Position numbers and translations under genes: made by a program. The notes under the pieces were generated by a model, which ran no database searches, had not been told where the DNA came from, and was given only the letters and a program-made list of their open reading frames with translations. From a virus (taxonomy: Duplodnaviria > Heunggongvirae > Uroviricota > Caudoviricetes): 11,373 nt of DNA. Below are positions 1-11,373 of this stretch, piece by piece. The DNA is taken from the IMG/VR virus record IMGVR_UViG_2654587772_000004, positions 1 through 11,373 of that record, one strand, 5' to 3'. The first letter of the stretch is position 1. Every line of letters begins with the position of its first letter.

Positions 1-1158
1 ATGCCGTCTCCACGATTCCGCATCCGCAAAATGACTCTCTCCCGCGCCCTGGACAAATACCTGAAAACCGTCTCCGTACACAAAAAAGGGCACCTTCAGG
101 AGTTTTATCGCGCGAATGTCATCCGACGCTACCCCATCGCACAGCGTTTCATGGACGAAATCACCACCGTGGACATCGCCGCATATCGCGATATGCGACT
201 CGCTGAAATTAATCCCCGGACCGGAAAAGCCATCACCGGCAATACCGTCCGTCTCGAGCTTGCACTGCTCTCGTCGATGTACAACATCGCCCGGGTCGAG
301 TGGGGGACATGCCGGGATAACCCCGTTGAACTGGTGCGTAAGCCCCGTGTCTCTCCGGGACGGGAACGACGTCTGACGTCTTCGGAAGAACGCAGGCTTT
401 CCCGCTATTTTCGTGAACGCAACATGTCCCTGTATGTCGCCTTTCATCTCGCGCTGGAAACCGCCATGCGACAGGGCGAGATTCTGTCACTCCGCTGGGA
501 ACACATTGACCTGCGACATGGTGTGGCTCACCTGCCGGAAACAAAGAACGGGCATTCGCGCGATGTGCCTCTCTCCCGCCGGGCGCGCAACTTCCTCCAG
601 ATGTTGCCTGTGGCGCTGCATGGCGGGGTCTTTTCCTACACCTCTTCCGGCTTCAAAAGCGCCTGGCGCATCGCCACACAGACCCTGCGCATTGAAGACC
701 TGCATTTTCACGACCTGCGCCATGAAGCTATCAGCCGTTTCTTTGAGCTCGGCAGCCTCAACGTGATGGAAATCGCTGCAATATCCGGCCACCGCTCAAT
801 GAATATGCTCAAACGCTACACACATCTCCGTGCCTGGCAGCTGGTCAGCAAGCTGGATGCCCGTCGACGCCAGACGCAGAAGGTGGCCGCCTGGTTTGTT
901 CCTTACCCCGGACACATCACCACTGACGACGGGCAGACAGTGAGAATTGATATCTGCGACTTCGACGACCTGTCCGTGACGGCGGCAACCCGGGAGGAAG
1001 CCCTGTCCCGCGCCAGTGAGGTACTGCTGCGGACACTGGCCATCGCCGCCCAGAAAGGTGAGCGCGTTCCGGCCCCCGGTGCACTCCCCGTCAATGACCC
1101 GGCGTTCGTCATGGTCTGCCCTCTGAATCCGCAGGGTGCCCTGACCGCACAGGTATAA
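1..1158 (+). CDS. Tyrosine-type site-specific recombinase/integrase (385 aa) with a ~110-aa C-terminal extension beyond the catalytic Tyr; size and layout resemble Rci-type (shufflon-specific) recombinases
   Basis: Long ORF starting at window position 1. Box I motif ...[23 protein letters not shown]..., box II ...[42 protein letters not shown]... (His-x-x-Arg and catalytic Tyr). About 110 residues follow the Tyr, which is atypical for lambda/P2/Xer integrases. Rci-like assignment is from memory only. Confidence 0.8.
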
Positions 1159-1176
1159 TGCATAACGCATACAAAG

Positions 1177-1197
1177 AGCGAGTCGCAACGACTCGCT
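1177..1197 (+). terminator. Perfect 9-bp stem / 3-nt loop hairpin (AGCGAGTCG-caa-CGACTCGCT) 19 nt after the recombinase stop; possible terminator or protein-binding dyad
   Basis: Inverted repeat read directly from sequence; no U-tract follows on the + strand, so intrinsic-terminator function is uncertain. Confidence 0.3.
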
Positions 1198-1301
1198 TAA
1201 CACATTCGATCTGCATGATCGAAATTACTCGTTTCACCACAAAAAAATGAATCGGTAAAATAACCTCATGAACTGAAAGATGTTTTTCAGGCGGAGACGT
1301 A

Positions 1302-1670
1302 ATGAAACTGAACACAACCGGCATAGCAGGTCAGCTGATGCTCTCGCTCGACAGAGACGTGATTGCCGAAAAGCTCATCCACGACCGCAGAATCAACCCC
1401 ACGCCGTTGCAGGTCCGCTACCCGCAGGGCGTCCGGGATGTGCTCGTCATGATGAGCGAACAACTGGCGATTTCTGTGGCCGATTTAACCCGTATCCTGC
1501 TTGAGGACACGCTGCACAACATGTTCCTGCCCGCCGGCAATGCCGCCGGTACCGTGGCAGAACGCCTTGAGCTGCTCATGCAGGCACACAACCTCACCGC
1601 GACAGAACTGTCGTCTCTGCTGTCGCCCTGGAATATCCGCGCCTCTGTTCTTCGGGAGCCGGAAAACTGA
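1302..1670 (+). CDS. Hypothetical protein (122 aa as written); the frame would continue to about 1873 (~190 aa) if one A were added to the A4 run at 1663-1666
   Basis: GGAG ribosome-binding site 6 nt upstream of ATG 1302. Stop TGA at 1668-1670 sits just after an AAAA run, and the +1 frame stays open to TAA at 1871-1873. No family recognised from memory. Confidence 0.5.
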   Translation: MKLNTTGIAGQLMLSLDRDVIAEKLIHDRRINPTPLQVRYPQGVRDVLVMMSEQLAISVADLTRILLEDTLHNMFLPAGNAAGTVAERLELLMQAHNLTATELSSLLSPWNIRASVLREPEN

Positions 1671-1867
1671 CAGACTGGCTGTCCCCTGACGCTCTGGGCT
1701 GGCTGGCAGACTGCTTCTGCGTCAGTCCGGACTGGCTGAGCGGGCGGGAAAGTTATCCTGTCGCCCGCGCGGGTGAATGGCCGGACAATGCAAATGCATT
1801 CCGGAAACTCATCAGTGACGAAAAAAATACGGATATTATTTTCTGGCACGGTTTTCCCGTTTGCCGG

Positions 1868-1969
1868 AAATAATGCCAGAGAATATTGCGGTGTGATATT
1901 GCGGCAATGCACACACGTAAATAATGCCAGAATATTCCCGGTACTTTCTTTATTACCGGTGGCAATGAC
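1868..1969. repeat. Imperfect tandem direct repeat (~45-50 bp units, 2 copies) in the intergenic region upstream of the outer-membrane protein gene
   Basis: Unit A 1868-1912 (aaataatgccagagaatattgcgg...gcggcaatgcac) and unit B 1919-1969 (aaataatgccagaatattcccgg...ggtggcaatgacag) share the AAATAATGCCAGA(G)AATATT head and a GGCAATG tail. ATATTnCCGG-like submotifs also occur at 1882, 1896, 1931, 1951 and 2081. Confidence 0.5.
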
Positions 1970-2218
1970 AGAAGAAATTAATTTGTGGTTCTCAGGTGCC
2001 CTGAAAAGCAGGAAGCTGCCTGTGATGCCCCGGGCTGTATCCCTGCGCCCTGCTGCCGCTGAGGCACTCATTGCAGGAAGAATATTACCGGCACTCTGCC
2101 TGAACAGCGATTTATTGCCCTGGTAAAAAAAAACCGGGCAAACCAGCAGTAAAAAAATAATGGCACTTCGTGTCACGGGACTGTGTTGTCTTAAATCCGG
2201 AAAACAGGAAATTAAAAA

Positions 2219-3424
2219 ATGCAGAAAAAATATATTTCGCGCACGCTGATTGCTTCCGCCGTTTTATTTTCTTTTAATGCGATGGCAGCAACTTCATATT
2301 TTGAAGCACGCAATGATTGCAATGGGTGGCACCGGGGTGGCATCCTCCCATTATGGTGTGGCTCCTCTGGCAAACCCGGCTTTACTGACAAAGCACAACA
2401 GCAATGATGATTTCAGCCTGTTACTGCCGTCCGTGGGCGCACAACTGTCAGACCCGAACGACATCGCTAACAAAGCCGATGACATTCAGGACGACTGGGA
2501 TTGCCTTCGACCGCGCGGTCGACAGCAATTACGGTGTTGACCAGGCAGCGGCAAACCTGGAGACAGCGCCTGCTGGAGTTCCGCAATATCCACGCTGATG
2601 CGCAGGTGGGTGTTTCTGCCGTTGCGGCACTGCCGAATGACACGCTGCCGGTTGCCCTGATGGTGAAATCCTACGGTACGGTCAGCGTTGACGGCAAAGT
2701 CAGCGACGCCGATCTGGACTATCTGGAGAAAGTCGCCAACGGCACAATCACGGATGTGGACAAAAACGCGCTCACCTCCCGCGCGTATGGTCGTGCCGCA
2801 GTGGTCACTGATGTGGGTATTTCCTTTGCAAAAGAACTGGAAACCGTCGGTCAGAAATGGTCACTGGGCTTCACCCCCAAATACCAGCGCGTGGACCTGT
2901 TCAACTACAACGTCTCCGTGCGCGATTACGACAGCAGCAACTTTGACGGCGACAAATACCACAACACGAAAAACGGCGTGAACGCCGACATCGGGGCATA
3001 CACCGACCTCGATGACAACTGGACGCTGGGTCTGGTTGCGCAGAACCTCATTTTCCGCGCAGCATCGACACGAAAGTGGTCGACGGCGTGAAGGAACCTA
3101 CAGAATCCGTCCGCAGGCCACTGCCGGTGTGTCCTGGCACAACGACCTGTTCAACCACTGCACTTGATGTTGACCTGACGCCGGCCAGCGGATTCACCTC
3201 CGACAGCAAACGTCAGTTCGCCAGCATCGGCGCAGAATTCAACGCCTGGAAATGGACACAACTGCGTGCCGGTTATCGTCAGAACATGGCGAACAACAGT
3301 GGCAGCGCATTCACGGCAAGGTGTCGGAATTTCACCGTTTGATGTGGTTCACCTGGACATCGCCGGTCTGGTCGGTACTGACCATGACTACGGTGCGATG
3401 GCCCAGCTGCAGTTCACCTTCTGA
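2219..3424 (+). pseudogene. Outer-membrane beta-barrel protein gene (possibly FadL/OmpP1/TodX-like transporter family) disrupted by at least four frameshifts
   Basis: Good ribosome-binding site (AGGAA, 8 nt before ATG 2219). Signal peptide MQKKYISRTLIASAVLFSFNAMA. N-terminal ...VAPLANPALLT (NPA-type hatch motif) and C-terminal ...GAMAQLQFTF ending in Phe, typical of beta-barrel proteins. The reading frame hops between all three + frames (ORFs 2219-2407, 2250-2540, 2404-2598, 2501-3091, 3076-3342, then the frame ending 3424). Family assignment is tentative. Confidence 0.5.
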
Positions 3425-3474
3425 TGAACATGCCCCCCGCTCCCGGGGGTATTCTGCAACTGAACTGACAGTTA

Positions 3475-3926
3475 TGCGTATCCTCAAAAATCGCTTTCAT
3501 CTTGTGCTGGCAGGCGTCTCACTCGCGATCGTGTGTTTCCTGTACTTTTCGGCCCGCCATGTACCGGAAATATCCCCGGATGCCGTGGCCGAACGCAGTC
3601 ACTCCGCCCGTATTCTGATCCTGATTCGACACGGGAGAACGTTGTGACCGCTCCGACAATCCATGCTCAGCCGGCCCTTCCGGCATTACCATTCCCGGTG
3701 CATATCGTGGCGTGGAAATACGGAACACAGTTCAGAAAGCACATACCGTTGTATGCCCTGTACGCCACGGGATACCGTCAGAACAATACAGACAGCCCGT
3801 TACTTTGGCAGACAGGAAGCTCAGGTCATTAAAGCACTGGGATATTGTGATGAACGCCTGCTCCCGCTTCTGAGGTCATTATCAGAAAGCACGCAGGAAG
3901 GCGTTTCCGTTATTTTTCACGCATAA
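3475..3926 (+). pseudogene. ais/pmrG-like periplasmic histidine phosphatase (LPS core heptose(II)-phosphate phosphatase family) gene with about three frameshifts and a 3' truncation
   Basis: N-terminal membrane/signal segment MRILKNRFHLVLAGVSLAIVCFLYF. RHG motif (ILILIRHG) followed, after a 1-nt shift at ~3636, by ERCDRSDNPC...GITIPG, then ...DTVRTIQTARYFG... and ...VSVIFHA in other frames. These match my recollection of E. coli Ais (…FRHAERCDRSTNQC…GITVKG…NTVRTIQSATWF…NIVIFTHNH…). The ORF stops where the homolog would continue for roughly 40 more residues. Confidence 0.55.
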
Positions 3927-4837
3927 TCACAGCCATCGTGTCGGCCAGCACCTGCGCGGTGCGGGTGTAGTTTTCAAAGAGGAACAGCGGGTCATCAGAG
4001 CAGGTACGGTTACCCCAGAAGCGGAAACCGTCGCGGCGAATCAGCGTAGTGACGCCTGACTCATTAAGCAGGTCAGCATCGGTGCCGGACTCCTGCAAAT
4101 CCCAGAATACAGAGGCGCTGATGCCGGTAACACCGTTCACCCCGACGTTGGACAGCGTTTTATGCCAGCCCTGCTCCTGGTCGATTTTAGCGCGCAGACC
4201 CAGCGCACGGGCGGTGGCATACGCGGTGGCGGTGGTACTGGTGACCGTATCCCATGCGAGGAAATCCGGCCAGATGACCATCAGCTCACGCTGGCTGAAA
4301 TTCTGGCGGTAGGCTTTCACCTCGGAAATGGTCTTACAGCCCCATGCGCTGATATATCCGAAAGCGCGCAGCTTCTGACAGACTGATGCCAGTGCAACAG
4401 CCACCTCTTTGGTGTCCAGTCCCGGCACGCCGAGAATACGCGGTTTAACACCGGTAACAGACTCCGCCGCCAGCAGGGCTTTCAGTCCGGTGTACTGACC
4501 GTTTTCGTCGGTGGTGCCGATGATATTGGAAACAGTCTGCGCGAGTTTCGTTTCCTCGTCGTCGCCGGTGCCGTCTTCCACACGCACGACAAACGGTGAC
4601 CGGTTTTGACTGGTCGGCGATGGCCTGCAACGATGCCGCCAGCGTGCCTTTTTTACCGGCCTTTGCAATTGCGCTCTGCACATTGGTAATCAGCACAGGT
4701 TTATTGAGGGGGAAGGTTTCCGCATCCGCATCGCTGGCCGTGCAGACCATGCCGACAATGGCAGTGGATACGGTGGAAATGACGCGGGTGCCGTCGTTAA
4801 TCTCCAGCACCTGCACGCCGTGATGATAGTCACTCAT
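3910..4837 (-). pseudogene. Phage tail sheath protein (P2 gpFI-like), frameshifted at ~4590 and 3'-truncated
   Basis: N-terminal ORF (4445-4837) [57 protein letters not shown]...QSKPVTV is sheath-like. The frame then shifts at an AAA/TTT run (~4590-4592) into ORF 3910-4683 (...[18 protein letters not shown]...[18 protein letters not shown]...). Total about 309 codons versus roughly 390-400 for P2-type sheaths. GGAG ribosome-binding site upstream of the ATG at 4835-4837. Confidence 0.85.
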
Positions 4838-4896
4838 CCGTTTAACTCCGTGGTTAATGGGTGAGTGATATTTTCAGTTGTGCCGGAGATGTCAGG

Positions 4897-5490
4897 CTAT
4901 TTGTCCCGGTTGGCTAAGGGATGACACAATTTATTCTTTATCGCTGATGAGGGAAATTTTTTATAGAGCGTGGACAGGCCAATATCAAAAATCAGTGCCA
5001 CGCGTTGACGTGACTCCCCTGCAGCCAGCAAACGCCCGACCTGCTCCCACTCACTCGTGGTGAGTTTAGGACGTCTGCCACCAATACGACCTTTGGCTCT
5101 GGCCGCTTCCAGCCCGGCCCGAGTCCGTTCGACAATGAGTTCTCGTTCCATTTCAGCCAGGGCACCCATCACATGAAAGAAAAAACGCCCCATCGGCGTG
5201 CTGGTATCAATAGCATCTGTCAGGCTGCGAAAATTAATGCCGCGTTCGCGCAGTTCCTCAACCAGAATGACCAGATGCCGCATACTACGCCCCAGCCTGT
5301 CCAGCTTCCAGACTACCAGAGTGTCACCTGCTGATAATGTTCTGAGCAGTTTTTTCAGCCCCGGTCGGTCGGACTTCGTGCCGCTGATTTTATCCTCAAA
5401 AATCAGCTCACATCCTGCGCACTCGAGCGCGTTACGCTGCAATTCCGTGTTCTGGTCATTTGTTGATACACGAACATAACCTATACGCAT
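4897..5490 (-). CDS. pin: Serine DNA invertase of the Pin/Gin/Cin/Hin family (197 aa)
   Basis: MRIGYVRVSTNDQNT... (catalytic Ser in GYVRVSTNDQ), resolvase core ...LVVWKLDRLGRS..., ...MGRFFFHVMGALAEMERELIVERT..., C-terminal helix-turn-helix ...ALIFDIGLSTLYKKF... Lies next to an invertible tail-fibre segment. AGGGA ribosome-binding site 6 nt upstream of the ATG. Confidence 0.92.
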   Translation of the reverse strand: MRIGYVRVSTNDQNTELQRNALECAGCELIFEDKISGTKSDRPGLKKLLRTLSAGDTLVVWKLDRLGRSMRHLVILVEELRERGINFRSLTDAIDTSTPMGRFFFHVMGALAEMERELIVERTRAGLEAARAKGRIGGRRPKLTTSEWEQVGRLLAAGESRQRVALIFDIGLSTLYKKFPSSAIKNKLCHPLANRDK

Positions 5491-5651
5491 AAAAATCCCT
5501 ATAAAAACAGAATAATGACACAGAATTATCTATATATGTACAAGCGGACAAGGCTATGGAGCTCTCAGTTACAGTAATCTTGCTGGATAAGAATATTTAC
5601 TGATAGTGGATACATAGCCCACTTAGCATTCCCATGTGAAACAAATAAGTA

Positions 5652-5660
5652 TGGTAAGAT
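5652..5660 (+). promoter_or_regulatory. Candidate extended -10 element (TGgTAAGAT) for the 5689-6006 ORF
   Basis: Sequence tatGGTAAGAT about 30 nt upstream of the ATG in an AT-rich stretch; no strong -35 identified. By-eye prediction only. Confidence 0.25.
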
Positions 5661-5688
5661 AGGTTGACCTCAATAAAAGGAAAATCTG

Positions 5689-6006
5689 ATGAACATCGAT
5701 ACCAATAAAAAAACTACCACACTGAAATATTTTGTCGAAGCCTATCCAGAGAGAATCACTGTTCAAGCGTGGGAACGCCTAGTCAATGAAATTGGTGATT
5801 TAAAAGAAGTTTATGGATATATCGCCTTTCTGCATGACGATGGGTATCTTACAGGAAAGGTAATCTTCGATGGTTCTCCTGAAAGTATTGATGGATGGAG
5901 TGTAGATACTGCCTCTCTAAGGATTACATCACAAGGTTATCATTATTGGAAAAAATTAAACCCTACAACACAAGGGAGTAGCGGAATCCTCAGAAGGAAC
6001 AGATAA
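5689..6006 (+). CDS. Hypothetical 105-aa protein of unknown function encoded in an AT-rich insertion (moron) between pin and the invertible segment
   Basis: Intact ORF with AAGGA ribosome-binding site 7 nt upstream of the ATG. Region 5491-6132 is visibly AT-rich (roughly one-third G+C by eye) against >50% G+C flanks. Followed by a 14-bp-stem hairpin. No signal peptide or transmembrane segment. No family recognised from memory. Confidence 0.65.
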   Translation: MNIDTNKKTTTLKYFVEAYPERITVQAWERLVNEIGDLKEVYGYIAFLHDDGYLTGKVIFDGSPESIDGWSVDTASLRITSQGYHYWKKLNPTTQGSSGILRRNR

Positions 6007-6012
6007 CTAATA

Positions 6013-6044
6013 AAGATGGTAGCACCATTTGGTGTTACCATCTT
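6013..6044 (+). terminator. Stem-loop (14-bp stem with one G-U pair, 4-nt loop) 7 nt downstream of the 105-aa ORF stop; putative terminator
   Basis: AAGATGGTAGCACC-attt-GGTGTTACCATCTT read directly from sequence. The downstream tract is A-rich rather than U-rich on the + strand and T-rich on the opposite strand, so it may act bidirectionally or weakly. Confidence 0.4.
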
Positions 6045-6132
6045 AAAATATACCGTTACAATCAGCACTTTCCATTTTTATCTAACAATCAATACTAGGA
6101 CACTCCCTTCTTTCAACATCATATTTAACCGA

Positions 6133-6158
6133 TTCCATAAAACGTTGGTTTGGGAGAA
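6133..6158. promoter_or_regulatory. Left crossover site (hix/gix/pix-like 26-bp site) of the invertible tail-fibre segment
   Basis: TTCCATAAAACG-TT-GGTTTGGGAGAA. Its inner half-site GGTTTGGGAGAA matches the inner half of the right site at 11/12 positions in inverted orientation, and the overall 12-2-12 architecture resembles hixL (TTATCAAAAACC-TT-GGTTTTCAAGAA). Confidence 0.75.
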
Positions 6159-6644
6159 GGTTCTGCGTTGCCTGTTGGCATACCAGTTCCTTGGCCTTCA
6201 GCTACGCCGCCAACAGGCTGGCTGAAATGCAACGGGGCTGCTTTTTCGGCTGAAGAATACCCGGAACTGGCAAAGGCTTACCCGACAAATAAATTGCCTG
6301 ATTTACGTGGTGAGTTTATTCGTGGCTGGGATGACGGGCGGGGGATTGATACAGGTCGCTCTATTTTAAGTATTCAGGGGTATGCAACGGAGGATCATGC
6401 TCATGGATTACCGTCAAGATCCACGATTGTGACTGATGCAACGATTAATTTCTATTTTGATGAAAGCTGGGTAAATAGTGGCACTGACATTATCAAAAGA
6501 GGAAACACAAACGATGCTGGATTACCAGCACCGGATTATGGAACCTTTAAAACATATAAACAATCAGTGGCTGGTTTAGGTGCCGCAGCCTCAGAAACGC
6601 GTCCGCGTAATATTGCATTTAACTATATCGTGAGGGCAGCCTGA
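6147..6644 (+). CDS. Alternative tail-fibre C-terminal variable segment (Sv'-type), promoterless and start-less in the present orientation
   Basis: Open frame begins immediately after the crossover core with no ATG (the ORF track uses TTG at 6150). C-terminus ...AGLGAAASETRPRNIAFNYIVRAA resembles the ends of Mu S / P1 S-type fibres (from memory). After inversion it would fuse in frame to the constant part of H (...AGLLAYLG-LGEGSALPVGIPVPWPSATPPTGW...). Confidence 0.75.
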   Translation, partial: GLGEGSALPVGIPVPWPSATPPTGWLKCNGAAFSAEEYPELAKAYPTNKLPDLRGEFIRGWDDGRGIDTGRSILSIQGYATEDHAHGLPSRSTIVTDATINFYFDESWVNSGTDIIKRGNTNDAGLPAPDYGTFKTYKQSVAGLGAAASETRPRNIAFNYIVRAA

Positions 6645-7246
6645 TGCATAAAGCAATATTAAATAGTGAGCTCATTGCAACAAAGGCAGGGGATGTTACC
6701 GTTTATAACTATGATGGTGAAACACGGGAATATATTTCCACTTCAAATGAATATCTTGCCGTTGGTGTCGGCATTCCGGCATGTTCCTGTTTAGATGCCC
6801 CTGGCACACATAAGGCTGGTTATGCAATCTGCCGTTCTGCAGATTTTAACTCATGGGAATATGTGCCAGACCATCGCGGTGAAACGGTCTATAGCACCGA
6901 AACAGGAGAATCAAAAGAAATCACCGCTCCGGGTGATTACCCTGAAAATACAACCACTATCGCCCCATTAACGCCATATGATAAATGGGATGGTGAGAAA
7001 TGGGTGACGGATACCGAGGCACAGCATAGCGCCGCAGTAGATGCAGCAGAAGCACAGCGCCAGTCGCTGATTGATACTGCAATGGCTTCCATCAGTCTGA
7101 TTCAACTGAAATTGCAGGCCGGACGTAAACTGACGCAGGCAGAAACAACCCGGCTTAACGCTGTGCTGGATTACATTGACGCGGTGACGGCAACAGATAC
7201 CAGCACCGCGCCGGATGTCATCTGGCCTGAACTGCCGGAGGCGTAG
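6644..7246 (+). CDS. Tail-fibre assembly chaperone (Tfa / Mu U-like), partner of the alternative fibre segment
   Basis: 200-aa ORF whose ATG overlaps the upstream stop (TGATG). C-terminus ...LNAVLDYIDAVTATDTSTAPDVIWPELPEA shares the conserved Tfa C-terminal motif with the convergent gene at 7218-7670. Confidence 0.8.
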   Translation: MHKAILNSELIATKAGDVTVYNYDGETREYISTSNEYLAVGVGIPACSCLDAPGTHKAGYAICRSADFNSWEYVPDHRGETVYSTETGESKEITAPGDYPENTTTIAPLTPYDKWDGEKWVTDTEAQHSAAVDAAEAQRQSLIDTAMASISLIQLKLQAGRKLTQAETTRLNAVLDYIDAVTATDTSTAPDVIWPELPEA

Positions 7247-7670
7247 GCCATTCAATATCTGGTGCACTGGAGGTATCAACCAGCTCCAGTGCATCCAGAT
7301 AATCCAGCCACAAATTATATTGCGCCAGTTCCTCACCTTTCAGACGACCAATAGCGGCTTTACCGGGCCATTGCTTACTGTTCATGTATTCGTTGGCCTG
7401 GTTAATTAGTAGCTGTCTTTCTGATTCAGTAATTTCAATAAGCTCTTCATGCGTGGGTGGAGGAATATCTGCCCACGCAGGCAGCCCATCATCTCCGGCA
7501 ATACGGATTTTTCCTTGTGGCGGTTCAGCCATAAACTCACTGATAATATTTTGATTTACTTCCTTAGCGTCTGATAAATCCCATCCCTCTGATTTATATT
7601 TATCAATCATATCCACAGGGAAAAAAGCATTATGCCTTGCGCTATAAACATATTCGTTCATATAAATCAC
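7218..7670 (-). CDS. Tail-fibre assembly chaperone (Tfa / P2 gpG-like), partner of the currently expressed fibre
   Basis: 150-aa ORF directly downstream of the fibre gene on the minus strand. C-terminus ...LWLDYLDALELVDTSSAPDIEWPTPPAVQAR. The 3' ends of the two convergent Tfa genes overlap by 29 bp (7218-7246). Confidence 0.8.
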   Translation of the reverse strand: MIYMNEYVYSARHNAFFPVDMIDKYKSEGWDLSDAKEVNQNIISEFMAEPPQGKIRIAGDDGLPAWADIPPPTHEELIEITESERQLLINQANEYMNSKQWPGKAAIGRLKGEELAQYNLWLDYLDALELVDTSSAPDIEWPTPPAVQAR

Positions 7671-7681
7671 CCTGAATAAAA

Positions 7682-8881
7682 TTACTCACCAACAGCCCAC
7701 CAACTGTAATTCATCGATACCGTGTCGCTGGTTGATGACGTTCTGTAAGCAGAATTAAAGCCGGTTAACGTTGGGCCTTCTGCAGTCATCACGAACCCTC
7801 GCCCAGCGCCTAAAGGCGCACCGCCATCACCAGAATGAGTAAGCATGGCGCAGTCCGCTTTTTTGGGGAAAGGGATGCTGAATGTAATTCTCATTGTTTG
7901 CGTCGATAATGTCGGCGTAACCGCACCACGACCATATTGCAGGATTTTCCCGTTGGGTAATTTCATCCATCCATCACCACTGGCAAAAGAGGCCATGTCC
8001 GGTATCTGATTTTCCCCTGTCCCCACATCCCGTTTTGCCGCTTCTCTCAAACCAAGGTATGCGAGAAGACCAGCTACATCCTTTCCACTCAAATGAGTCA
8101 GCGTCTCATCCAGTGGCTGCTTACCTGACAGCGCATTGTTAATGGTGGTGCTGAATTTCGGGTCATTGTTAATGGCCGCGGCAATTTCTTTCAGTGTGTC
8201 CAGTGTGGCTGGCGCACCGTTAATCAGAGCGGTAATAGCGGCCTGAACAAACTCAGTGGTCGCAATCCGCGTGGTGTTATTTCCTGCGGCAGGCGTCGGC
8301 GCTTTTGGTTCTCCGGTAAATGTCGGATTATGTTTCTGCGCATACTGGGTATGAGGATCCTGTGCGGCAATGTGGTTTCTCATCTGGTCATCCACATACA
8401 GCTTTAATTCCAGGACTTCATCATCCACGTATTTACGGGTCGCCAGTACCACCGACGGGTCGATTTTCAGCGTGATAGCTTCGGTATTCGTGACAACCAG
8501 AATCATGCGGATAGTCTGGGTACGACCACTGCCTTCCTGCAACTGCGGTTTGTACGTTTCCGGGCAGTTCGCCACCGCAATGAGTACGCCTTCATCATCA
8601 TAAAGCCCAATCTCACGGATCCAGAATCCGCCCTCGTTCTCAGGGATGATTTGCTCCGCAATAATCTGGCTCTGGTTGTTCGGGTCAACACTCAGAAGAT
8701 TCAGCGGCGCGATGCGTTTCTGGTTAATCAGTTTTGTCTGTGCCGGGTCTGGTGTCGGCAAGACACCATTCGCATCACCAACGGCCATTTGCGTCAGATT
8801 CAGCTTACTGCCGAGCATCGTCGCGTTAGCCAGCCGTGCTGCGCCCTGATTAGTCAGAATGGCGTAGTATTTCACTGTCAT
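7682..8881 (-). CDS. Phage tail fibre protein (P2 gpH-like), 399 aa; constant N-terminal part (~275 aa) plus the currently joined variable C-terminal part
   Basis: Lies between the baseplate gene and the Tfa gene in the canonical P2 order. Its ATG overlaps the upstream gene's stop (ATGA). Contains the right crossover site at codons ~272-280 (...AGLLAYLGLREAAKRD...). Confidence 0.85.
   Translation of the reverse strand: MTVKYYAILTNQGAARLANATMLGSKLNLTQMAVGDANGVLPTPDPAQTKLINQKRIAPLNLLSVDPNNQSQIIAEQIIPENEGGFWIREIGLYDDEGVLIAVANCPETYKPQLQEGSGRTQTIRMILVVTNTEAITLKIDPSVVLATRKYVDDEVLELKLYVDDQMRNHIAAQDPHTQYAQKHNPTFTGEPKAPTPAAGNNTTRIATTEFVQAAITALINGAPATLDTLKEIAAAINNDPKFSTTINNALSGKQPLDETLTHLSGKDVAGLLAYLGLREAAKRDVGTGENQIPDMASFASGDGWMKLPNGKILQYGRGAVTPTLSTQTMRITFSIPFPKKADCAMLTHSGDGGAPLGAGRGFVMTAEGPTLTGFNSAYRTSSTSDTVSMNYSWWAVGE
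8042..8067. promoter_or_regulatory. Right crossover site of the invertible segment, located inside the tail-fibre gene
   Basis: Top strand TTCTCTCAAACC-AA-GGTATGCGAGAA; bottom strand TTCTCGCATACC-TT-GGTTTGAGAGAA. Shares the core dinucleotide and the conserved inner half-site with the left site. Confidence 0.75.
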
Positions 8882-9489
8882 GCGTTTACTCTCAGGTTAT
8901 CAATTAAATGAATGGCCGAGGCCGGGAAATAATCCCCTCCGACAATAATGGCCTCCGGGGTGTAGGGATAAACCGTCAGGGCGTCGCCGTGATAGCATCC
9001 CGCACCGGCAAAAATGTTGCCGGTTGTACTTAAACTGATAGCCAGTCCCGTCAGATGGCGGCTCGCCGGTTTTGCATCAGCAACGAGGCGCTCCAGCTCC
9101 TGATACATTTCTTCGGTAATACCCTGCTCAAGCACGCCAACAACGATACGGAACGTCCCCGGCTCCTCGTTGAGCTGCCACCACTCCCTCACCTCAATCA
9201 GATAGCCGAGCGGCTCCACCACACGCCGGATTGCACCTATAGTGCCTTTATGACAGTGAATGAAATACGCATCGCGGATAACAGCGCGTTTTGTCGCTTC
9301 CGGCCACTTATCATCCCAGCGGTCAACCGAAAATGACCACGCCAGCCACGGCAGCAGATTTGCCTGGCAGGTATCCGGGTTCCACAGTTCACGAATACTG
9401 ACCGGCGTTTTTTCAATTTCCGCACAGGCTTTTGCGGCGGCGACTTCAAGCGGTGATGAGCCGGTCGGCAGCAGGCGCGAATCACTCAT
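8878..9489 (-). CDS. Phage baseplate protein, P2 gpI-like (203 aa)
   Basis: MSDSRLLPTGSSPLEVAAAKACAEIEKTPVSIRELWNPDTCQANLLPWLAWSFSVDRWDDKWPEATKRAVIRDAYFIHCHKGT... matches my recollection of P2 gpI; synteny J-I-H; translationally coupled to H. Confidence 0.85.
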   Translation of the reverse strand: MSDSRLLPTGSSPLEVAAAKACAEIEKTPVSIRELWNPDTCQANLLPWLAWSFSVDRWDDKWPEATKRAVIRDAYFIHCHKGTIGAIRRVVEPLGYLIEVREWWQLNEEPGTFRIVVGVLEQGITEEMYQELERLVADAKPASRHLTGLAISLSTTGNIFAGAGCYHGDALTVYPYTPEAIIVGGDYFPASAIHLIDNLRVNA

Positions 9490-10389
9490 CCGAGCCTCCG
9501 GTCACGACGCGGTATTCGGTGCAGAAAGACGCCTGCGTGCTGTTAAGCACGATATCGGCCAGCGGTGCAGCCAGTTCGACACGCTGCACGCCTTCCACAT
9601 GCAAAGCGGCATAAATGGCAGACAGACGGATGTCGCGCCCCAGCCGGTGCTGTGCCGTGACGTACGCTTCCAGTTTTTTCACGGCGGCGGCGCGGATGGG
9701 TTCGCTTTCGGGACCAGGGTAAAGGTAAAGCGTGGCGTTTATCTGGTATTCAACGATGGCGGCAGACTGCACGGTCACGCGGTCGGCCACCGGCCTGACG
9801 TCCTCGCCATTAAGGGCGTTACGCACCACCGCCAGCAGGTCTTCGGATGCGACACCGTTATTTTCACGTGACAGCACAGAGATGGTGACGCAGGCCGGAG
9901 AAGGACTGGTGACAGAGATATCCGCGACACGCCCGTCGGCACTTCGACCATGATACTGATAGGCCCCACCGACCCGGCGACGCTTAAACCTTCAAACGCC
10001 TGCTGAATACGCAGACGATAATCGGTGTCAGACTCCATCACTGCCGGTGTCGGCGGGATAGTCGAATCATCTGCCGGGGTGATAATCAGGCGCGTGGTGT
10101 TGTAATTGGCACCAATCACATCAAGGTCATTACCGGCGGCACAGGCCAGCATCACCGCCCGTGCGGCCTCATTCACACGCTGACGCCAGATAAGCTCACG
10201 ATAAGCATTTTCCTCCAGCAGTTTGACGAGAGGCTCGGATTCCAGCGTCAGGGTACGGGCGACCGCCTCCTGCTGGTCTTCCGGGTAAAGGGAAATCAGT
10301 GTCGCCTTGCGTTCGGCAAGAATGGTTTCAAAGTCCAGCTCCTCGACCACATCCGGTGCGGGTAGCTGGTTCAGGTCGATAATCGGCAT
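9482..10389 (-). pseudogene. Phage baseplate assembly protein J (P2 gpJ-like), split by a single-nucleotide frameshift in a G/C run at ~9964-9967
   Basis: N-terminal ORF 9775-10389 (MPIIDLNQLPAPDVVEELDFETILAERKATLISLYPEDQQ...SVAGSVG) and C-terminal ORF 9482-9877 (...SRENNGVASEDLLAVVRNALNGEDVRPV...YRVVTGGSDE) are both gpJ-like. In the +1 frame across the junction the sequence reads GAYQYHGRSADGRVADISV..., so adding one G to the GGGG run would restore a single ORF. Confidence 0.8.
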
Positions 10390-10393
10390 GGTT

Positions 10394-10741
10394 TCAACTC
10401 ACAGGGATGGTTAACGAAAGTGGCTGGCCGGTGTCGTTGTGCTGGCCGGTTAACGTGACCGTCATTCGCCCGTCAAAACTGCGCTCAGTGGTGACGGATG
10501 ACAGGGTGACGCGGGGTTCCCATTTCAGCACCGCCATGTAACAGGCGACCTTAATCTGCAACTCAAGCGCCGGGGTCTGCGGCTGGTCAATCATTGACTC
10601 CAGCAACGAGCCGTAATCACGACGCATCACCCGTGAGCCGACCGGTGTGCGCAGGATATCGCCGATACTCTGGCTGATATGCTCAAGGTCAGTGACAGTC
10701 AGGCCATCACTGCGATTCATTCCGAGATAACGCGCTGTCAT
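10394..10741 (-). CDS. Phage baseplate wedge protein, P2 gpW / T4 gp25-like (115 aa)
   Basis: Size, position between V and J, and sequence (MTARYLGMNRSDGLTVTDLEHISQSIGDILRTPVGSRVMRRDYGSLLESMIDQP...) typical of gpW. Start overlaps the stop of V (ATGA). Confidence 0.85.
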   Translation of the reverse strand: MTARYLGMNRSDGLTVTDLEHISQSIGDILRTPVGSRVMRRDYGSLLESMIDQPQTPALELQIKVACYMAVLKWEPRVTLSSVTTERSFDGRMTVTLTGQHNDTGQPLSLTIPVS

Positions 10742-11373
10742 AGAGGACTCCCGGTTGTGCCGCCGCTGTCGCCGGGGTGTTTATGGGTATGCAGTACCTT
10801 ACCGTTTGATGAGAGTTCACCGCCGGTGTGTTCAATGTTGCCGCGCATCGTCCCGCCCTTCTGCACTTCCAGCGTGCCGGTAATCAGCCTGTTGGTGCAG
10901 ACCACCTCCGGTGTGTCCAGGGTGACGCGGGTTGATGCTTTCACCGTGACCACCGGCACCGTGGCAGTAACAGAATCAGAAGCCGTCACGCTGGCCGTTT
11001 TAATTCCGCTTACCGTGAGTGCACTGGTTTCGGGTTCATACTCAATCACCGCCCCGTCAGGGAAACGGATATGCAGGGCATCCGCCGACGCAGACGGCGC
11101 GGGGTTATCGCCGGAATAAATCCCCGGCAGAACAAACGCCGTGTCAAGTTCACCGCCCACGGCCAGAATCAGCACCTGCTCCCCCACGGAAGGTGCCCAC
11201 CATGTGCGCGAACGCCCGGCACGACAGGTCAGCCACTGAAGCCAGTCGGTGCACATGCCGCCGGTCTGCACACGGCAGCGACCGGCGTTAAGGTCGGTTT
11301 CGATGATAATGCCGGTGCGAATCATGTTGCGCAGTGCGCGCGCGAGTTCCTGAATATTTGCGAGAGTGTTCAT
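10738..11373 (-). CDS. Phage baseplate assembly/spike protein, P2 gpV-like (211 aa)
   Basis: Full ORF whose ATG is the last three bases of the window (reverse strand). Sequence (MNTLANIQELARALRNMIRTGIIIETDLNAGRCRVQTGGMCTDWLQWL...) and position upstream of W fit gpV. Confidence 0.85.
   Translation of the reverse strand: MNTLANIQELARALRNMIRTGIIIETDLNAGRCRVQTGGMCTDWLQWLTCRAGRSRTWWAPSVGEQVLILAVGGELDTAFVLPGIYSGDNPAPSASADALHIRFPDGAVIEYEPETSALTVSGIKTASVTASDSVTATVPVVTVKASTRVTLDTPEVVCTNRLITGTLEVQKGGTMRGNIEHTGGELSSNGKVLHTHKHPGDSGGTTGSPL

Follow-up and report, generated by a model that had tools for sequence, protein, structure and literature searches.

The window analysed here, the whole 11,373-nt stretch of IMG/VR record IMGVR_UViG_2654587772_000004, contains an ais/pmrG-like frame and a P2-type tail sheath frame that converge at positions 3900–3935 and overlap at their 3' ends. 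This raises the question of how the two came to lie next to each other. The initial annotation proposed a deletion scar, in which the sheath 3' end and everything that follows it in P2 had been lost and the prophage remnant had been fused to non-phage DNA.

A true breakpoint is indeed located inside 3900–3935. Sequence comparison revealed a sharp change in homology at 3929|3930, from plasmid DNA to prophage DNA, without shared bases, an N run, a repeat or a mobile element end. Eleven independent plasmid copies, eight plasmid contigs among them, cover window 1–3929, with homology ending exactly at 3929. A search using window 1–3935 as a query gave a plasmid match up to exactly 3929. When 2400–5600 was compared by megablast with 5,426 complete E. 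coli genomes, P2-like prophages matched in their thousands, and the matches listed all begin at query base 1531, which is window position 3930. By direct comparison, the sequence at the join is …CACGCATAATCA|TTGCCTGAG… in the plasmid and …GTGCGCCT|CAGCCATCGTG… in the prophage, and the window reads …CACGCATAATCA|CAGCCATCGTG…, continuous and with no N spacer. The two parents have no bases in common at 3929|3930, i.e. no microhomology, and no repeats, inverted repeats, IS ends or recombinase crossover sites were found at the join. Base composition shows no useful step across it. An exact search for the junction 27-mer in contigs from viruses, genomes and metagenomes gave 0 matches, and with the junction region as a BLAST query, phages and plasmids matched on one side only. 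No junction-spanning record was seen in any collection searched, including the E. coli genomes, among the matches listed.

The DNA to the left of the breakpoint (window 1–3929) is the rci-traE-traF-traG block of an I-complex plasmid. It is 99.1–99.2% identical to three complete plasmids, one of which is typed as IncK2/Z. The window starts at the ATG of rci (1–1158, plus strand), an intact gene encoding a shufflon tyrosine recombinase of 385 aa with a match to Pfam Phage_integrase. In the plasmids rci adjoins pilV and the shufflon, and the identical protein is present in many plasmid contigs. The following traE (1302–2128, plus strand) is collinear with the traE CDS of plasmid loci L002 and L006 and is broken by homopolymer indels at 1658, 1852 and 2125. 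traF (2219–3424, plus strand; TraF_2 family) is broken in the same manner at 2317, 2501, 2559, 3051–3052, 3094, 3153 and 3318. The last gene, traG (3474–3929, plus strand), encodes an Ais/PmrG-family histidine phosphatase and is represented by its 5' 452 of 579 nt, with +1 indels at 3633, 3709, 3769 and 3913. These four indels shift the gene, and the ORF at 3663–3926 is in the true ais-like frame only at about 3770–3917. Once corrected for the indels, the window traG equals the intact plasmid protein through residue 150.

The phosphatase gene is 579 nt long (192 aa) in every plasmid copy and is followed by traH (DotD), traI and traJ. The gene in the traG slot of the plasmids is annotated as “LPS core heptose(II)-phosphate phosphatase”. 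The intact 192-aa homologue matches NCBIfam PRK15416 (NF011945, Ais subfamily) with 172.5 bits against a cutoff of 142, and also matches Pfam His_Phos_1; the PmrG equivalog model NF052369 gives 91 bits, below its cutoff of 170. Judged from its sequence, the traG product belongs to the Ais/PmrG LPS core heptose(II)-phosphate phosphatase subfamily. It is not an orthologue of chromosomal ais/pmrG, the gene being located between traF and traH with no chromosomal arn/pmr neighbourhood. The ais/pmrG-like label was hence fair for the family, but the gene is plasmid traG and no chromosomal ais locus is present. Similarly, the DNA beside the prophage sequence is indeed non-phage, and comes from the transfer region of an IncK2/Z plasmid. 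In the IncI1 plasmid pESBL the same slot is TraG, with the same annotation, and was classed as dispensable for transfer from transposon-insertion data (PMC4288162). The window gene shares with the plasmid traG proteins the slot between traF and traH, and the same 192-aa protein is found in IncK2/Z plasmids, whereas the window copy is cut short and has four frameshifts. The traG slot of I-complex plasmids is thus occupied by a histidine phosphatase of the Ais/PmrG family, conserved at 192 aa (L002 9466–10044).

To the right of the breakpoint, window 3930–11373 is a P2-like prophage carrying FI, a Cin/Pin-type invertase, an invertible tail-fibre segment, H, I, J, W and V. The FI-type tail sheath gene (3930–4837, minus strand) is represented by its 5' 907 of 1191 nt (codons 1–302) and has a +A frameshift at 4591. 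A second minus-strand ORF at 4445–4837 carries the true sheath N-terminus, which shows that the sheath gene is frameshifted internally. The subtilisin-like sheath domain PF04984 (Phage_sheath_1) was detected over the full model with 118 bits in the minus-strand ORF 3910–4683. PF17482 (Phage_sheath_1C), located at residues 280–382 of the intact homologue, gave no match in the window sheath, whose sequence ends after residue 302 of a full length of about 396 aa. The full-length sheath of this lineage reads …LADTMA-EAHMWAVDKPITATL… (…ADTMA-EAHMWAVDKP…), and none of these sheaths ends in …VIMREK as the window ORF does. FII, E, T, U and D are not present after the window sheath; plasmid DNA is found there instead.

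The window DNA from 3930 on is ~98% identical to Peduovirus P2, and 3930–4837 corresponds to the first 302 codons of the FI orthologue. The upstream order of invertase, tail fibre, I, J, W and V is the same in the window as in P2-like prophages. Compared with the P2 FI-FII-E-T-U-D-ogr late operon, the window is without codons 303–396, and with them nearly the whole of PF17482, as well as the downstream tail genes, and has the +1 frameshift at 4591. P2-like sheath and tail modules of ~98% identity were also seen on large plasmids of Klebsiella, Enterobacter, Citrobacter and E. coli (e.g. NZ_CP025141.1, NZ_CP134387.1), which may represent phage-plasmids or else plasmids into which a prophage has inserted.

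The invertase gene (4897–5490, minus strand; 197 aa) is an intact prophage gene. The invertible tail-fibre segment (6145–8058) has the orientation found in the E. coli ST2747 record CP007393 and is inverted relative to CP007394. The invertase has apparently been switching in culture, the tail-fibre orientation differing among records presumed to be of the same strain, to which the window is assigned by inference. A site-specific event at the join, mediated by either Rci or the Cin/Pin-type invertase, was rejected, as neither parental join sequence is repeated elsewhere in the window. The sole demonstrated inversion boundaries in the window are near 6145–6159 and 8041–8058.

The P2-type baseplate genes I, J, W and V occupy 8878–11373 on the minus strand, and the window ends at the start codon of V. 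J contains a frameshift at 9963, a run of C4 for C5 (ORFs 9775–10389 and 9482–9877), resulting in a 204-aa product. The same 204-aa gpJ product is encoded on an unrelated 1.3-kb Logan contig, ERR10499571_2716, at 98.6% identity. The frameshift may have arisen repeatedly, either as a real variant or as a homopolymer error. Just beyond the position equivalent to 11373, intact relatives carry a Pycsar anti-phage cargo (cyclase and PycTM effector) between gpR/gpS and gpV (L001 16545–18447, L018 5505–7407).

Turning to the convergent ends, the two ORFs were found with the coordinates originally reported. The plus-strand ORF 3663–3926 (…VSVIFHA) ends with a TAA at 3924–3926 and the minus-strand ORF 3910–4683 (…MAVIMREK) with a stop at 3910–3912, giving an opposite-strand overlap of 17 nt. 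Both are shorter than their families, for which the intact sheath has 396 aa and the intact ais-like protein 192 aa; at 3929|3930 the sheath gene is cut without its 3' third and the Ais/PmrG-family gene without its 3' fifth. An overlap of convergent ORFs alone has little meaning, and it is the homology breakpoint that goes beyond chance. The run at 3913–3917 is T5 in the window and T4 in every reference, and this single extra T produces both the TAA at 3924–3926 on the plus strand and the TAA at 3910–3912 on the minus strand, both of which are located in plasmid-derived DNA. When the extra T is removed both stops vanish; the plus frame across the join becomes …VSVIFTHNH|SHRVGQ…, and the minus frame is also open past the former stop. 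The ais-like stop and the exact position of the sheath stop are consequently due to a homopolymer indel and not, as had been suggested, to the junction. We suggest that each ORF would continue beyond its own gene, in foreign DNA or in the frame that results from the miscalled T run, until it meets a chance stop, and that the neat convergent stops would be by-products of a join plus a homopolymer miscall.

Intact versions of both partners were identified in closely related genomes. Window 1–3929 has 0 substitutions relative to the E. coli ST2747 records CP007393 and CP007394, and the mismatches of window 3930–11373 to these records are confined to the margins of the inverted segment. Among the matches listed, the E. 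coli prophages ranking next are 97–98.5% identical. This level of identity points to the same strain as CP007393 and CP007394 for both halves of the window, and the window likely derives from the third ST2747 record, CP007392. In CP007393 and CP007394 the prophage is complete, with FI (396 aa), tube, E/E', tape measure, U, D and ogrK next to yegQ. An independent assembly, GCA_038714055.1 (99.93% identity), has the same FI-to-ogr layout beside yegQ. The independent and intact prophage L018 gives a collinear match to window 3930–11373, and the genes from FII to ogr follow the sheath in L001, L005 and L018. The plasmid stretch of CP007394 contains full-length traG and continues into traH-traJ. 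In other ST2747 assemblies, both partners thus occur intact and apart from one another. The proposed loss of FII-E-T-U-D is contradicted by two sister assemblies and an independent relative, which retain FII-E-T-U-D-ogr immediately behind a sheath gene of full length. The initial annotation itself had named tube and tape-measure genes adjoining the sheath, as found here in the closest genomes, as evidence against its proposal.

An old deletion within a chromosomal P2-like prophage, taking the sheath 3' end together with FII-E-T-U-D-ogr and fusing the remnant to a chromosomal ais locus, with subsequent decay, would be in line with the truncation of both genes at one point and with the frameshifts in several window genes, which superficially look like decay. 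However, the left flank is plasmid rci-traE-traF-traG and no chromosomal ais locus, the right end of the prophage in this lineage adjoins yegQ rather than ais, and the apparent decay consists of homopolymer indels only, resembling sequencing error. One side comes from the transfer region of an IncK2/Z plasmid and the other from a chromosomal P2-like prophage at yegQ; a deletion cannot join two separate replicons, and therefore no deletion has taken place. Nor is the event old, since there are 0 substitutions relative to the intact copies of the same strain, and an old, decaying remnant was rejected for this reason. A junction of a cryptic P2-like prophage to its native flank, traceable in related strains, was not found in the collections searched. 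We regard this explanation as scarcely credible. Position 3929|3930 does bound the phage-derived DNA in the window, as would be expected of a right-hand prophage limit, but not by deletion, and overall the earlier interpretation is partly supported.

The differences between the window and its relatives are unevenly distributed. In window 1–3929, 15 sites differ from both sister records, and all are changes in the length of mononucleotide runs, 14 by one base and one (3051–3052) by two. One more difference, at 1073, results from an error in the CP007394 record. In a comparison with 11 plasmid copies, it is the window that deviates at every indel site. No indels relative to both sister records were found in window 1–1657, and all 15 events are in 1658–3929, a density of 6.6/kb. 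The prophage side, 3930–11373, contains two indels, at 4591 in FI and at 9963 in J, a density of 0.27/kb (binomial p = 3e-8). Indel-only differences are a signature of sequencing error and not of pseudogene decay. From the pattern of indel density it follows that the consensus degrades towards 3929 and recovers beyond it, a discontinuity in consensus quality located at the join. Such a change fits two consensus pieces of unlike coverage, with quality falling towards a contig end.

The history of the ST2747 assemblies is relevant in this respect. For the genomes CP007392–4, PacBio C2 reads at a low coverage of about 28x were assembled by HGAP, giving about 14 scaffolds per genome (Xavier et al. 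2014, PMC3983296), and the scaffolds were ordered into a “gapless chromosome” (PMC3983296). The three clonal isolates, which include nitrofurantoin-selected mutants (the drug acting via toxic reduced derivatives), were reported to have chromosomes of 5.054, 4.999 and 5.090 Mb (PMC3983296), a spread of up to 91 kb. The RefSeq collection lacks CP007392. The map used for ordering offers no position for scaffolds from plasmids or from strain-specific prophages. In the two sister records, plasmid pieces are found near the ends, at about 4.96–4.98 Mb of 4.999 Mb and at about 5.02–5.04 Mb of 5.090 Mb, surrounded by sequence that is clearly spurious. The same plasmid block is cut in a sister record at the window equivalent of 934, beside a partial ABC-protein gene, IS1397 and a copy of pepN in 8 frameshifted pieces; a cut at the equivalent of 3842, with pilP within about 25 bases, is likewise present in a sister record. 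In CP007393 the plasmid pil region occurs twice, with 0 mismatches and 21 gap openings between the copies (L004 496–6083 vs 11999–17567), and a hairpin-like inverted duplicate is also present (L004 1–495 vs 12702–13196). These duplicates are direct evidence of concatenated redundant scaffolds. Some hundreds of bases past the plasmid piece of the same record lies a truncated lambdoid tail-fibre gene annotated as “partial in the middle of a contig”. The window and the artefacts of CP007393 and CP007394 have in common a 0-substitution sequence, a plasmid fragment beside unrelated chromosomal or prophage DNA, indel-only errors and redundant copies, whereas the traG|FI junction is in neither record.

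Based on the error pattern and the published assembly procedure, we infer that the junction at 3929|3930 is very probably an assembly artefact, either a gapless contig join or a chimeric contig. Two separately assembled pieces of one ST2747 isolate would have been joined head to tail, or fused in a chimeric long-read contig. The first piece would be an IncK2/Z plasmid contig that breaks off within traG and whose end is of low coverage and rich in indels, and the second a fragment of the P2-like prophage of the strain, beginning inside the sheath gene FI. Some caution is called for, as the window is continuous, without an N spacer, and the prophage side is not especially error-rich near the join, the first indel there being 660 nt away.

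The main alternative to an assembly artefact is a real illegitimate recombination of the end-joining type, which fused the IncK2/Z plasmid to the P2-like prophage and truncated traG and FI. The plasmid could have integrated into the sheath gene, or it could have picked up a tail fragment of the prophage. The clean and continuous junction sequence is consistent with such an event, as is the occurrence of P2-like tail modules on plasmids of Enterobacteriaceae. Reduced nitrofurantoin derivatives damage DNA and could promote rearrangement, and the presence of mutants selected on this possibly mutagenic drug among the isolates also speaks for it. On the other hand, the join has no microhomology or mobile-element signature, the consensus error rate shifts sharply there, both partners are intact in two sister genomes, the same plasmid region abuts different unrelated DNA in each sister record, and the assemblies were built by gapless scaffold concatenation. 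Taken as a whole, real recombination appears unlikely. Marginally less probable still is a more specific version, in which the resident prophage and the plasmid recombined in a single ST2747 isolate, possibly one of the nitrofurantoin-selected mutants; a module of P2 baseplate, tail-fibre and invertase genes would then lie beside plasmid shufflon and transfer genes, either in an Hfr-like cointegrate or on a plasmid with a partial tail module. If true, it would be a modest example of illegitimate recombination between plasmid and prophage.

The window extends from the ATG of rci to the ATG of gpV, and its resemblance to an integrase-containing prophage may explain how the region was delimited. 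The match of a plasmid shufflon recombinase to Pfam Phage_integrase, beside P2 tail genes, mimics a prophage remnant with an integrase and a deletion scar. In this case the resemblance most likely stems from low-coverage long-read scaffolds that were stitched into a pseudo-chromosome, and the junction would then imply nothing biological about a loss of FII-E-T-U-D-ogr. Artefacts of this kind are marked by differences confined to indels, by a sudden rise in error density and by intact partners in sister genomes, and recognising these joins prevents them from being miscounted as prophage decay or as gene flow between plasmids and phages.
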